Below, in pieces: positions 33,767 through 36,953 of a stretch of DNA of 64,000 bases. The DNA is from an archaeon (GTDB taxonomy: Archaea > Nanobdellota > Nanobdellia > Pacearchaeales > GW2011-AR1), in the NCBI GenBank assembly GCA_018648095.1, contig JABGRV010000006.1, forward strand, positions 16,559 to 80,558. The letters are read 5' to 3'. Below the pieces are notes generated by a model that was not told where the DNA came from, searched no databases, and was given only the letters and a program-made list of their open reading frames with translations. Position 1 is the first letter of the stretch. Each line of letters starts with the position of its first letter. Position numbers and translations under genes: made by a program.

Positions 33767-33878
33767 TCCTAACTCCCTCCAAGGAGATTAAACGAATAGA
33801 ATAAACAACCAGCCCCTGGATGCTCAAAACAACCTCAAGCAGAGCCCGGAACCAGCCATATCAAACCCTCCAGCAGTT

Positions 33879-35363
33879 TTACTCCCTCCTGAACGGTCGA
33901 CAGACACTCCACTTAAATCTTGTAGCCTTCAGTTTGAAGGTTTGGTGCTTCTCGGGAAGATCTTCAATGTCCATTCCCAATGTTTCTCCGGGGCAGGAAG
34001 GACATTCATTCCACCGCTCTTCTTCATCTGCAGCCGCCTTTTCAGCAGCAGCTTTCGCCCTTGCAGCTCGCTTCTCAGCTCGCTTCTTCTTAGCAGCTTC
34101 GCTACCGATCCAAAGATGGATTATGCCTCGAATGACTGCCATCGAAACCGTAATCACCATGATTGAGGAAACAATGGCTAGAGAGACATACTTCAGAACG
34201 GTGAGGACATCGAACCCACACTGCTCACAAATAATTGCAGTGGTAAAGAATCCGATGATTATCCAGGGAATGGGTGCGAACGGCCAAAGCCAACGATTAT
34301 AGAAGATCGATCGCACCCCCGGATAGGGATTGAAGAAATCTCCCGGATTGACCCAGTTATGGGAATCCAAGGGATTCCGCAATGTTTTGAGATTGATCTT
34401 CTTTCCCCACAACAGCAGGATGGTGTCCGTGACAATCAGGACGCCGTAGAGCACCACCAGAAGTAGGCAATACAGAATCGGCTTGGCTGTGAGGGCGTAG
34501 ATGAATCTCCGGCGGAACGAACACTGATCAACAGGATCATATTTGTGTCCGAAATTGACCCACTTCGACAGCCACTTCGGAGGCTCCTTGGCGAAGAACT
34601 CTTCGGGGACATCGATGTCGATTTCCGCGTGTCCAACCTTATGCGCATTAACCTGGTAATGGTTCCAGAACGCCTCATCGTCCCTCAGCTTCCCTTCATC
34701 GTCCAGAACATATGCGGCATATTCATTCCGGGTATGTTTCTTGAGAAGACGTTTTCTCATCTTCTTAGCCTCTCCGGTGGACCAGACAAGCGTGGCCTGG
34801 ACGGTGTGCATTCCAGGACTCAAGAACGAGAGATAAGCCATCTCCTCTTCCACTGGGATGACTCTGCGCTGTTCGACTCCTCCCCCCTTCGGCTTGATCA
34901 CGATCAGGATATGGAGATTCTTCGCTCCGCTTTCCCGAAGTTCCTGGATCTTGTCCGGACAGATACACCATCTGGCCGTCACAACAGAATCCTCGGAAGT
35001 AATCTGTTTTACCTGAAGGTGAAAGATTTCACCGTCCTGGTGTTCCAAGGGAGTTCCGGGCTCAACCGGCGCTTCTTCGACAGGCCCATTACTCTGATTG
35101 CTTGCCAAACGTTCGAAGACAACATTGGGCGGATCGCCTTCAGACATTTTGGGCCCAGGTGCCATTTCACCGCCCGAAACTTCCGGTCCGTCCTGCGATG
35201 CGGCGTCTTCCGACTCTTCCTGCGTTTCCGGTTCATCTTTATTTTCCGGATCGCCTTCTGCTGCGGATTCAACCTGAGTTTCTACGACTTCTTCCCGAAC
35301 TTCGGAATCACCCTTAACATCCGGATCATCCTGTATGTTCGACTCGTCTTGCGATGGGCACAT
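33879..35363 (-). CDS. family B multi-TM membrane protein, paralog 1 (acidic N-terminal tail, soluble domain, 4-5 TM, Ala/Lys/Arg-rich helix, C-terminal CPSCPG...CRPFRRE)
   Basis: Shares an identical N-terminus (MCPSQDESNIQDDPDVKGDSEVREEVVET), internal DQCSFRRRFI, and the C-terminal Cys motif with 35490..36851. Confidence 0.55.
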   Translation of the reverse strand: MCPSQDESNIQDDPDVKGDSEVREEVVETQVESAAEGDPENKDEPETQEESEDAASQDGPEVSGGEMAPGPKMSEGDPPNVVFERLASNQSNGPVEEAPVEPGTPLEHQDGEIFHLQVKQITSEDSVVTARWCICPDKIQELRESGAKNLHILIVIKPKGGGVEQRRVIPVEEEMAYLSFLSPGMHTVQATLVWSTGEAKKMRKRLLKKHTRNEYAAYVLDDEGKLRDDEAFWNHYQVNAHKVGHAEIDIDVPEEFFAKEPPKWLSKWVNFGHKYDPVDQCSFRRRFIYALTAKPILYCLLLVVLYGVLIVTDTILLLWGKKINLKTLRNPLDSHNWVNPGDFFNPYPGVRSIFYNRWLWPFAPIPWIIIGFFTTAIICEQCGFDVLTVLKYVSLAIVSSIMVITVSMAVIRGIIHLWIGSEAAKKKRAEKRAARAKAAAEKAAADEEERWNECPSCPGETLGMDIEDLPEKHQTFKLKATRFKWSVCRPFRRE

Positions 35364-35466
35364 AAAGTGCTCCTTTCAACTAGAGTTAACAACCAATGAA
35401 TAGAACCATACCCAACAAACAACCAGCCCCGGGATGCTCAAAACAACCACAAGCAGAGCCCGGAAC
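35279..35466. repeat. 188-bp direct repeat copy 1 (leader plus first ~29 codons of the family B gene)
   Basis: Identical on inspection to 36766..36953. Confidence 0.8.
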
Positions 35467-35489
35467 CAGCCATAACCAACACTTCAGAC

Positions 35490-36851
35490 TTATTCCCTCC
35501 TGAACCGCCGACAGACCTTCCCCTTAATCTCTTCAAACCTCAGGGTGGCGGTCCTTTTTTCCTTGGGGATATCTTGCAGGGTAGTTCCCAATGCAACACC
35601 TGTGCAAGCCGGATAATCTCCCCATTTCTTCTCGGCCTTAACTTTCGCAGCCTCCCTTGCAGCTTCTCTAGCCGCTCTTGCAGCTGCAGCCCTCTTTTGC
35701 CTTCTTTCCCTGACCCATTCTTCAATCCGTCTTCCTAAACCGCCACCACTCTGAGCGCGATCGAACCAAGGATCCAGCAAATTCCCAACAGGATCATGAG
35801 CAATCCGAATAGCGATCGAACCAAGGATCCAGCAAATTCCCAACAGGATCAGGATCACGATGATAGCTGCAACAATCCCTCCCCCTACATAGATCAAGCT
35901 CGTTTGAAGATCAAGTCTCCAATAAAGCGTTAGGAGGAGAGTGGCAGTAGTTCCAAGGACGATCCAGGTAAAGGGCGCGAAGGGCCACTTCCAATATCCG
36001 CCGAAGACGGAGTCATTCCCTCTTCCGGGGAGGAAAAGATCCGTATCGTCCCAGTTACGAATGGGATGTTTCCACAGCTGGGAACTTACCTTCTTTCCTA
36101 CCGACAGCGAGATGGCGGAACTAAGCGTTAGAACCGTGTAGTAGAGGGCGAGAAACACTGCGAAAAAGACAGGTTGAAGCGTGAAGGCCAGGATGAATCT
36201 CCGGCGGAACGAACACTGATCAACCGGAGGATTCTCGAACCAAAGATTGGCCCACTTCGACAGCCACTTCGGAGGTTCCTTGGCGAAGAACCCTTCCGGA
36301 ACGTCCATCTCGACCACTTCATACCCTGCGCATTGTGAATGGGTATGGCGATGCCAGAATGCCGGACCAGTCTTCAGCTTACCATCACGGTCCAGAACAG
36401 TGGCCTCGTATGAATTTCGAGAATACTCGCTGAGAATGAATCTCTCCAAACCATCCGGATTCTCGCTCCAGAGAAGCGTTGCCTGGATTGTGTGTGGCCC
36501 GGGGCTCAGGAACGAAAGGTGGGTCATCGCCTTTTCAACGGGGATAAGCTTCCTCTGTTCAAGGTGCCCCTTCTTCGGCTTGACGACGATCAGGATCTGC
36601 AGATTTTCCGCTCCTGCTTCCCTGAGTTCTTCAAGCTTTTCGGGGCAGATGCACCACGTGACTCCGACGACTGCATCCTTGGGAGTGATCTGCCCAACGT
36701 TAAAGTGAAAGACCTCGCCTTCCTGGTGCTCCAAGGGCGTTCCAGGCTCAACCGGCGCATTCGGCGTTTCTACGACTTCTTCCCGAACTTCGGAATCACC
36801 CTTAACATCCGGATCATCCTGTATGTTCGACTCGTCTTGCGATGGGCACAT
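35490..36851 (-). CDS. family B multi-TM membrane protein, paralog 2
   Basis: See 33879..35363. The first 29 residues are identical. Confidence 0.55.
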   Translation of the reverse strand: MCPSQDESNIQDDPDVKGDSEVREEVVETPNAPVEPGTPLEHQEGEVFHFNVGQITPKDAVVGVTWCICPEKLEELREAGAENLQILIVVKPKKGHLEQRKLIPVEKAMTHLSFLSPGPHTIQATLLWSENPDGLERFILSEYSRNSYEATVLDRDGKLKTGPAFWHRHTHSQCAGYEVVEMDVPEGFFAKEPPKWLSKWANLWFENPPVDQCSFRRRFILAFTLQPVFFAVFLALYYTVLTLSSAISLSVGKKVSSQLWKHPIRNWDDTDLFLPGRGNDSVFGGYWKWPFAPFTWIVLGTTATLLLTLYWRLDLQTSLIYVGGGIVAAIIVILILLGICWILGSIAIRIAHDPVGNLLDPWFDRAQSGGGLGRRIEEWVRERRQKRAAAARAAREAAREAAKVKAEKKWGDYPACTGVALGTTLQDIPKEKRTATLRFEEIKGKVCRRFRRE

Positions 36852-36953
36852 AAAGTGCTCCTTTCAACTAGAGTTAACAACCAATGAATAGAACCATACC
36901 CAACAAACAACCAGCCCCGGGATGCTCAAAACAACCACAAGCAGAGCCCGGAA
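36766..36953. repeat. 188-bp direct repeat copy 2
   Basis: Identical to 35279..35466. A third partial copy (aacaaccagcccc(t)ggatgctcaaaacaacc.caagcagagcccggaaccagccata) lies at 33804..33859. Confidence 0.8.

Follow-up and report, generated by a model that had tools for sequence, protein, structure and literature searches.

Organization of the locus

We analysed a 64-kb stretch of DNA from an uncultured archaeon (contig JABGRV010000006.1), hereafter called the window; all coordinates below are window positions, and the window was the reference for all contig comparisons. It contains two adjacent paralogous genes of an uncharacterised family of membrane proteins that we term family B, encoding 453 and 494 amino acids (aa), which share a 189-bp direct repeat made up of an intergenic part and the first codons of each gene. 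All genes of the locus are on the minus strand, and they are listed in the direction of transcription in Table 1 with the copies of the repeat and of its inverted-repeat core, which is predicted to fold into a hairpin at the RNA level. The layout is hairpin-B-hairpin-B-hairpin, and each core begins 23-38 nucleotides (nt) after the stop codon of the 270-, 453- or 494-aa gene. Each copy of the repeat consists of 103 nt of intergenic sequence (a 53-nt inverted-repeat core and a 50-nt leader) and 86 nt of coding sequence. Read in the gene direction, the module is thus an approximately 53-nt hairpin with a U-rich tail, the leader with a ribosome-binding site (RBS; GAAAGGAG), the ATG, and 28.7 codons. 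A motif of the GAAAGGA type, as found in the leader of the repeat, precedes most genes of the GC-rich island in which the locus lies (see below).

Table 1. Genes, repeat copies and predicted hairpins of the family B locus, listed in gene direction (dG, predicted folding free energy in kcal/mol; z, z score of the fold; ORF, open reading frame; L022, contig of a diverged relative)
Feature	Position	Strand	dG	z	Remarks
270-aa gene, upstream of the array	36993..37805	-			3' flank abuts repeat copy 1
Intergenic region, 270-aa/453-aa genes					141 nt
Repeat copy 1	36766..36954	-			189 bp, exact identity with copy 2; core, leader, ATG (36851..36849) and codons 1-28.7 of the 453-aa gene
Core hairpin, copy 1	36902..36954	-			Starts 38 nt after the 270-aa stop; upstream flank not homologous to those of the other copies
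Leader, copy 1	36852..36901	-			Identical to leader of copy 2
453-aa gene, family B	35490..36851	-			
Intergenic region, 453-aa/494-aa genes					126 nt
Repeat copy 2	35278..35466	-			189 bp, exact identity with copy 1; same content before and inside the 494-aa gene, ATG 35363..35361
Core hairpin, copy 2, with outer stem (AUGGCUG...)	35414..35474	-	-25	-2.7	After the 453-aa stop; followed by UUGUUUGUU
Leader, copy 2	35364..35413	-			Hairpin to ATG; RBS GAAAGGAG at 35370..35377, six bases before ATG
494-aa gene, family B	33879..35363	-			Same first 29 residues, then a 68-aa acidic insertion that the 453-aa copy lacks
Intergenic region, 494-aa gene/67-aa ORF					112 nt
Core hairpin, copy 3	33800..33860	-	-21	-1.5	Between the 494-aa stop (33879) and the ATG of the 67-aa ORF (33766); starts 26 nt after the stop
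67-aa basic ORF	33563..33766	-			Own unrelated leader and RBS; outside the repeat unit; called as a gene in independent annotations
Intergenic region, 67-aa ORF/918-aa gene					200 nt
918-aa gene	30606..33362	-			
Core hairpin, L022			-39	-6.0	

The 189-bp repeat

The repeat had been described in an earlier note on this DNA as a perfect direct repeat of 188 bp. The identity was confirmed and the length was corrected to 189 bp: the two intervals had been placed one base out of register (131 mismatches if they are taken literally), and alignment of the two copies gave no mismatch once shifted by one base. The offset between the copies, and hence the period of the array, is 1488 bp. A repeat finder extended the same pair to 192 nt at 99% identity, and no other long perfect repeat was present in the window. 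The module holds no homopolymer or short tandem tract. The first downstream mismatch between the copies is at the third position of codon 29 (ACG and ACT, both for Thr) and is synonymous; therefore, both proteins share their first 29 residues (MCPSQDESNIQDDPDVKGDSEVREEVVET), as had been reported together with the divergence of the coding sequences downstream, where the protein bodies are about 46% identical.

The edges of the identical tract were sharp. Aligned identity was 30/30 in each interval inside the tract and fell at once to 11-26/30 in the flanking intervals. The upstream limit is the end of homology at the 3' flank of the 270-aa gene, and the downstream limit is a 204-nt acidic insertion that is found only in the 494-aa gene and directly follows the tract; the coincidence of the limits with these two positions is as expected for homology-dependent repair. 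The chance of a 189-nt identical run was about 7e-33 at the 60-65% DNA identity of the remaining gene sequence and about 7e-8 at 88%, which is the identity of the region between lineages (see below); at 88% identity, the probability of 189 identical bases was about 5e-11 per start site.

Divergence of the paralogs and probable gene conversion

Outside the tract, the two genes are old paralogs. Their bodies showed about 46% aa identity, approximately 60-65% nucleotide identity and 51% identity at third codon positions, with 1.25 synonymous (dS) and 0.45 nonsynonymous (dN) substitutions per site; therefore, both paralogs are under purifying selection and neither is a pseudogene. Such a dS and such an aa identity do not support the earlier suggestion of a very recent duplication. 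In the first 26 codons, by contrast with the bodies, none of the 14.3 synonymous sites differed between the two genes.

A diverged relative of the locus was found on contig L022 (ENA ERZ4231638), which was reached via P0014, the 90%-identity cluster mate of the homolog P0002. This contig carries, in order, the 3' end of a gene homologous to the 324-aa gene of the window (36% aa identity), a leader like that of the window's 161-aa gene, a family B gene of 500 aa, an intergenic region with the same core and leader as in the window, and the start of a second family B gene. The 500-aa gene was equidistant from the two window paralogs (48-50% aa identity; dS, 1.36-1.44). Both family B starts of L022 read ATGTGTTCACAACAA, and both starts of the window read ATGTGCCCATCGCAA; at the DNA level, both genes of L022 begin with ATG TGT TCA CAA CAA and both genes of the window with ATG TGC CCA TCG CAA (MCSQQD and MCPSQD, respectively). 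Thus, the variants that distinguish the lineages are identical in both paralogs within each of the two genomes, and the two starts of L022 were identical to each other over the 52 nt of the second gene that are on the contig. Between the window and L022, the module was identical at 134 of 152 aligned positions (88%), with 18 differences, and its first 78 coding nt were identical at 64/78. The proportions of different synonymous and nonsynonymous sites (pS and pN) in the first 26 codons were 0.37 and 0.07 between the lineages. From this pS, selection alone predicts about 5 synonymous differences in 26 codons, against 0 seen within the genome. Synonymous sites are therefore homogenised within the genome, and selection at the protein level does not explain the identity. 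Note that the hairpin arms, the leader and the N-terminal peptide nevertheless change more slowly between lineages than the gene bodies do.

Within a genome, the paralogs are thus more alike in the tract (189/189 in the window; 52 nt in L022) than the copies of different genomes are. Because the module is identical within genomes and differs between lineages, conversion or unequal crossing-over fits best, and very recent gene conversion, which the earlier note had already put forward, appears to be the best explanation of the perfect identity as judged from the sequences. We consider it likely that the 189-bp repeat represents a 5' module that recombination has recently homogenised between two ancient tandem paralogs, in addition to its being held by purifying selection. 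Homologous recombination would recently have replaced one copy by the other, through interlocus gene conversion or an unequal crossover, the mechanism and the direction of the exchange being conjectural. The presence of three hairpins for two genes could be accounted for if one ancestral gene with a hairpin on either side was duplicated through unequal recombination between these hairpins. The shared module would provide both paralogs with the same translation-initiation region and the same N-terminus.

The gene order of L022 differs from that of the window upstream of the array. Comparison of L022 392-544 with window 39913-40010 showed that the first family B gene of L022 directly follows the homolog of the 324-aa gene, its hairpin and leader being those found in front of the 161-aa gene in the window. 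Either L022 lacks the four intervening genes (161, 161, 283 and 270 aa), or recombination close to the common GTTGA.GAA(A)GG motif has reassorted leaders and gene bodies.

The intergenic hairpin

In the predicted fold of the core RNA, an outer stem ((G)GUUCCGGG / CCCGGGGCUGG) is followed by an internal loop and by an inner stem (UGCUUG / UGAGCA), and the structure is followed by UUGUUUGUU. The CCGGG/CCCGG inverted repeat forms the stem of this hairpin, in agreement with the near-inverted repeats (ccccggg and cccgg) that had been pointed out before. The hairpin, with a loop of 9 nt and many G-U pairs, was predicted in all copies. A C-to-A change in copy 3 breaks one G-C pair, and three outer pairs are changed from G-U to A-U in copy 1. 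The hairpin arms of L022 are identical in sequence to those of copies 1 and 2 of the window, and a 17-nt insertion extends the inner stem from 6 to 13 bp; the structure has therefore been kept, and strengthened, though the flanking proteins are only about 50% identical. In the 64 kb, the counts of a 25-mer and a 17-mer of the core were three each, whereas the chance expectation was 0.00 and 0.17, respectively.

The third copy is partial. Positions 33800..33873 are 91% identical to 35414..35487 over 74 nt, and the 53-nt core (33800..33852) has 2 mismatches to copies 1 and 2. The sequence upstream of the 67-aa ORF, for which a third leader copy had been claimed, does contain this shorter copy, but the term leader does not apply, since only the hairpin core and 8 nt on its upstream side are shared and the leader and RBS in front of the ORF are unrelated. 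This copy is better read as the putative 3'-flanking, intergenic hairpin of the 494-aa gene. The leader of the 67-aa ORF itself (33767-33800, minus strand) contains CUCCUUGGAGGGAG, in which the RBS GGAG could pair with an upstream CUCC, and this pairing was predicted in the minimum free energy fold.

We infer a role of the core in the RNA: between genes, it would serve as an attenuator, as a terminator-like element or as one that stabilises 3' ends. Of the shared regulatory RNA proposed in the earlier note, the conserved structured element in the core was borne out, whereas its regulatory role is conjectural and no Rfam match was obtained. Rfam scans were performed over the whole window at the gathering threshold, where the only above-threshold match was a tRNA and the core matched no family, and permissively over 33.5-37.1 kb (33500-37100), where one sub-threshold chance match (MIR169, 24.5 bits against a threshold of 50) was located elsewhere than the core. 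A sigma-70 scan found no site in either leader, the host being archaeal in any case, and no convincing TATA or BRE (TFB-recognition element) motif conserved between the window and L022 was found by eye. An upstream ORF of 11 codons (ATGGCTGGT...TGA) overlapping the hairpin in copies 2 and 3 was considered and rejected, because it is absent from copy 1 and from L022 (ATAGCT).

Hairpins between genes are common in the island. Many of its intergenic regions have a strong predicted hairpin (-30 to -53 kcal/mol), often with a T-rich tail, which is followed by a spacer of approximately 30-50 nt and then by GAAAGGA before the ATG. One such hairpin, that of the region after the 324-aa gene, has been conserved in L022 (z about -6 in the two sequences) though the protein is only 36% identical.

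Public assemblies of the locus

The exact 453-aa and 494-aa proteins were encoded on 15 and at least 23 public contigs, respectively, from many samples. The contigs that we fetched were 99.9-100% identical to the window, the locus was 100% identical in more than 10 independent assemblies, and the two-copy arrangement was also present on large contigs of 177 kb and 385 kb. Contigs L001, L007, L025 and L026 span a junction; L007, L025 and L026 independently run from the 453-aa gene through the repeat into the 494-aa gene.

Many other assemblies are disturbed at the repeat. L002, L003, L004 and L005 end 27-114 nt into copy 2 (114 nt in L002), whose first base is also the first base of L008 and L029; L027 begins 19 nt ahead of this copy, and L028 and L030 begin within it. 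Four assemblies gave contigs with the 453-aa gene alone, of 1581, 1559, 1511 and 1493 nt, of which the length minus the terminal overlap is 1488 in each case; such loop contigs are the signature of a cycle in the assembly graph. In L023 (JGI 3300003496) and L024 (ENA ERZ4200951, at 3.5x coverage), the 270-aa gene is followed by a single repeat and by the body of the 494-aa gene, the 1488-bp unit being omitted precisely. Since sample JGI 3300003496 yielded both L023, which lacks the 453-aa gene, and the 1493-nt unit contig L036, assembly collapse is a simpler reading of L023 than a real deletion haplotype. The risk of assembly collapse that had been raised for this repeat is thus real: other public assemblies break, loop or collapse at it, and its copy number in the genome could exceed two.

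Alternative explanations

Several observations weigh against the interpretation proposed here. L022 is one diverged lineage, with 52 nt of its second gene on the contig, and concerted evolution in it is deduced from these 52 nt and from P0002, whose called N-terminus matches the leader of the second gene. The gene bodies form a trichotomy (46% between the 453- and 494-aa genes, 48% between the 453-aa gene and L022, and 50% between the 494-aa gene and L022), with too few taxa for a tree, and on these distances the duplication might have occurred independently in each lineage, which we regard as unlikely. As for the hairpins, those of the window contain many G-U pairs and have moderate stability (z = -2.7 and -1.5), and no compensatory double changes were found among the four sequences (0/21 pairs). 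A scan with a terminator consensus flagged only the inner sub-hairpin CGGGCTCTGCTTG followed by TGGTTGTTTT, not the main stem, and terminator-like sites in the scanned region were no more numerous than in shuffled sequence. The U-rich tail UUGUUUGUU is interrupted, the longest T run after the stem being T3, and archaeal termination is generally signalled by oligo-T rather than by hairpins.

The two copies could also be kept alike without recent recombination, by strong constraint on the N-terminal peptide and on a regulatory RNA or promoter common to both, and signs of constraint are seen in the identical hairpin arms of L022, in the identity of the module (88%, compared with about 60% at the nucleotide level for the bodies) and in the low pN of 0.07. 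The constraint is incomplete, however: 18 of the 152 positions differ between the lineages and pS is 0.37, while no site differs within the genome, even synonymously. Moreover, both paralogs carry the variants of their own lineage, so that the differences separate lineages and not paralogs, and we consider selection without recombination very improbable. That the two copies, or their perfect identity, were made by the assembler (as a chimera of strain alleles or by smoothing of the consensus) is hardly credible. The 189 bp do exceed common k-mers and short reads, and public assemblies break, loop and collapse here, but all three junctions (270-aa gene to repeat to 453-aa gene, 453-aa gene to repeat to 494-aa gene, and 494-aa gene to core to 67-aa ORF) were recovered 100% identical from different samples and assemblers; the repeat sequence after the 453-aa gene extends past the shared core, by 114 nt in L002 and to its full extent in L007, L025 and L026; and assemblers collapse repeats, they do not invent them.

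It is also conceivable, if unlikely, that the module and the hairpins are a functional recombination cassette, kept so that the 1488-bp unit can be gained, lost or exchanged, with switching of the copy number or the variant of a membrane protein as the outcome, in the manner of the 5' cassettes of the Mycoplasma vsp genes or of excision and integration of circular units. The precise repeat-by-repeat deletion in L023 and L024 and the four contigs of the 1488-bp unit would agree with this, as would the 5' modules shared in other arrays of the island (the leader and signal peptide of family E, and a 43-nt leader that occurs five times) and the different leader module of the first family B gene of L022. 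However, the recovery of both L023 and L036 from one sample is the classic outcome of a popped loop in the assembly graph, no recombinase, invertase or integrase domain was found by Pfam in 50 ORFs of the island and the right flank, no hypermutable tract was found, and the intergenic regions have no sites of the attC R''/R' type. The island further resembles integron arrays, which have been described in archaeal metagenome-assembled genomes (PMC9668308), in that 46/47 ORFs of a 40-kb array are on one strand, mostly without known function, with many imperfect inverted repeats between them; in this reading, the hairpins would be attC sites and a gene with its hairpin a mobile cassette. The attC consensus RYYYAAC...GTTRRRY had only 2 matches in 40 kb on both strands, neither of them mostly intergenic and neither with complementary ends, the hairpin sequences vary between intergenic regions, and no tyrosine recombinase or IntI was found in the window. 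With the attC consensus missing from the intergenic regions and no IntI in the window, an integron attC array was rejected, and we assign the integron-like reading a negligible probability.

Comparison with known systems

Interlocus gene conversion between tandem paralogs is known from mtrA-1/mtrA-2 of methanogen operons (PMC4632066) and has been surveyed (PMC6053082). The family B pair is similar in that a part of two adjacent ancient paralogs has been homogenised, with the rest divergent, and in that the copies within a genome are closer to each other. It differs from the mtrA type in the nature of the tract, which is a hairpin, a leader and 29 codons of a disordered tail and not a catalytic domain, and in the time scale: the comparison here covers two lineages, and the conversion, with zero differences, is very recent.

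The conserved N-terminus of the vsp proteins is a lipoprotein signal peptide, and vsp switching occurs by site-specific recombination; the tail of the family B proteins, unlike this, has an acidic composition and predicted disorder, and no recombinase was detected in the ORFs scanned. The arrangement is otherwise alike, both consisting of clustered divergent genes with a near-identical upstream region that includes the RBS, near-identical first ~30 residues, and repeat regions of variable length; in Mycoplasma bovis, a 71-bp upstream region with the RBS and a 31-aa N-terminus are each 99% identical among vsp genes (PMC3720590). Conservation of the 5' non-coding region and N-terminus in clustered variable genes is true of family B and also of family E. 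Integron arrays are alike in having short genes of unknown function on the same strand with inverted repeats that fold. The core hairpins also resemble intrinsic terminators, being GC-containing stem-loops 23-38 nt after a stop codon that are followed by a U-rich stretch and recur in the island; they differ by the many G-U pairs, the internal loop, the 9-nt loop, the interrupted U tract (UUGUUUGUU) and the archaeal host.

Family B proteins

In the 453-aa protein, an acidic disordered tail at the N-terminus is accompanied by a beta-sandwich domain and transmembrane helices, and a Cys motif comes after a basic helix. The AlphaFold model was of moderate quality (pLDDT, 65 overall); the beta-rich domain was at residues 45-205 (pLDDT, 80-88), and transmembrane helices, a long basic helix and a C-terminal Cys motif were also modelled. 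The shared 29 residues have a net charge of -8 and lie within residues 1-42 of the model, which have a pLDDT below 50 and are thus predicted to be disordered. Foldseek gave only weak fibronectin-III-like matches of the N-terminal beta domain in the PDB (E about 2e-3), and no Pfam family was found for family B.

Relatives of family B were collected by a profile search of 1.84 billion cluster representatives, which gave 1645 family members at E <= 1e-3 and 840 at E <= 1e-30. Almost all of them are 370-430 aa long and start at about profile position 45, and among the profile matches the N-terminal extension was found only in the lineage of the window (P0001, P0002 and P0003). The tail was thus added recently and in this lineage only, and its length varies. 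In P0014, the protein's own acidic segment is internally duplicated. Distant members (26-36% aa identity) are single copies in bacteria of the candidate phyla radiation (Nealsonbacteria and Saccharibacteria) and in DPANN archaea (Pacearchaeota); their loci share no other gene of the island and are uninformative on the repeat.

Two further observations were made on the sequences of the family B genes. The 453-aa gene contains a tandem duplication of 46 nt with a 55-nt period (35757-35857, minus strand), which is present in all assemblies. Since 55 is not divisible by 3, each copy is translated in a frame of its own (VILILLGICWILGSIA and IAHDPVGNLLDPWFDR); if one 55-nt unit were lost, translation would end with a stop at residue 353, and the conserved C-terminus would be missing. 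In the 494-aa gene, the acidic insertion (35194-35283) is 74% identical over 90 nt to 55319-55408 (minus strand), which is inside an unrelated 313-aa gene (55201-56142); at the level of sequence, this suggests that acidic linker modules may be shared between genes of the island.

The surrounding island

The locus is part of an island at approximately 21.6-61.8 kb (21600-61820) with about 49% GC in flanks of 38% GC, of which the borders are sharp within about 200 nt. The minus strand carries 46 of its 47 assigned ORFs, and Pfam or PHROGs matches were obtained for almost none of the 47. The flanks carry archaeal housekeeping genes: aIF-2 (TIGR00491) and an archaeal GluRS scored above the cut-offs, ribosomal protein S6e was matched below the cut-off, and PPDK was also present. 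A virus or prophage origin of the island was considered and rejected; the 19 proteins searched had no significant PHROGs matches except for one zinc-ribbon match of unknown function. IMG/VR contained no relative of family B and no core hairpin, no integrase was found, and no att-like direct repeat of >=14 nt was detected at the island borders.

The family B repeat is the most extreme, and the sole perfect, case of a 5' module shared within several paralog arrays of the island. Family E comprises three tandem paralogs (called as 361, 368 and 243 aa) with modules at 49718-49851, 50853-50986 and 51601-51734 (minus strand). Approximately 115 nt of this module, comprising leader, RBS and the codons of the signal peptide (MKRTIMMVMVVVLAIGG), are about 95% identical, against about 55% for the rest of the genes; the listed TTG starts of family E are probably wrong, the real ATG being approximately 45 nt downstream. 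A 43-nt leader precedes each of five consecutive genes (57461-57503, 58747-58789, 59301-59343, 59886-59928 and 60654-60696, minus strand) and holds a small hairpin, CTCCA-ATTG-TGGAG, followed by GAATGAAAGGAA; the related motif AACAAGAC(G)TTGA precedes the RBS of many other island genes. The leaders at 37796-37879, 38754-38837 and 39367-39415, which belong to the 270-aa gene, the 283-aa gene and one 161-aa gene of two families, share another small hairpin (CTCAAC-TAGTGTG-GTTGAG compared with CTCGGC-TAGTGTA-GCTGGG or GCTGAG) with wobble-compatible changes.

Some individual genes of the island were also noted. The 918-aa gene, two genes downstream of the family B pair, encodes a protein that matches the shoulder domain of the major vault protein (MVP; PF11978, E 9e-25) and has a weak match to the Vault_3 repeat; its length is near that of eukaryotic MVP, while the archaeal MVP-like proteins described so far are about 320-400 aa (PMC13607799). 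A protein like ligand-gated potassium channels of the GluR0 type, in which the solute-binding domain is split by the pore (PF00497 and PF07885), is encoded at 26823-27926 (minus strand), and the 324-aa protein (40067-41041, minus strand) has a PEP-CTERM-like tail that scored just under the Pfam cut-off. A tRNA-Val (TAC) gene (60712-60785, minus strand) is inside the island near its 5' end, directly upstream of a 230-aa gene. Outside the island, the motif GAAAATTTTCATCTTT is found twice, 40 nt apart, in an AT-rich region (62000-62060), and beside it a P-loop protein of 418 aa is encoded (62667-63923, minus strand), with two weak matches, one to Zot just above the cut-off and one to the CedD-like type (a DNA-translocating ATPase) far below it.

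That the whole island is a recombination-driven diversification locus for membrane and secreted proteins seems improbable to us. If it were, the slow-evolving hairpins, leaders and N-terminal cassettes would be portable homology blocks for duplicating, deleting, converting and re-coupling gene units, and contigs L023 and L024, which lack the 453-aa gene, would be real haplotypes.

Conclusions

Partial interlocus gene conversion between tandem paralogs is a well-known phenomenon of bacteria and archaea, and the family B locus is probably a new instance of it without a new principle. It is a clean, small example in an uncultured archaeon, in which the expression module and the tail are kept uniform and the bodies diverge freely. 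The repeat exceeds short reads in length, and public assemblies break at it, emit a pseudo-circular 1488-bp contig, or silently lose a gene; gene counts, calls of circular elements and comparisons of strains at this locus thus mislead unless the repeat is phased. The main value of the finding is this documented assembly hazard, together with the pointer to the island, which is the more unusual object for its foreign GC content, the placement of 46 of its 47 assigned ORFs on one strand, its genes of almost exclusively unknown function, its several paralog arrays with shared 5' modules and its 918-aa MVP-like protein, and which may deserve a study of its own.

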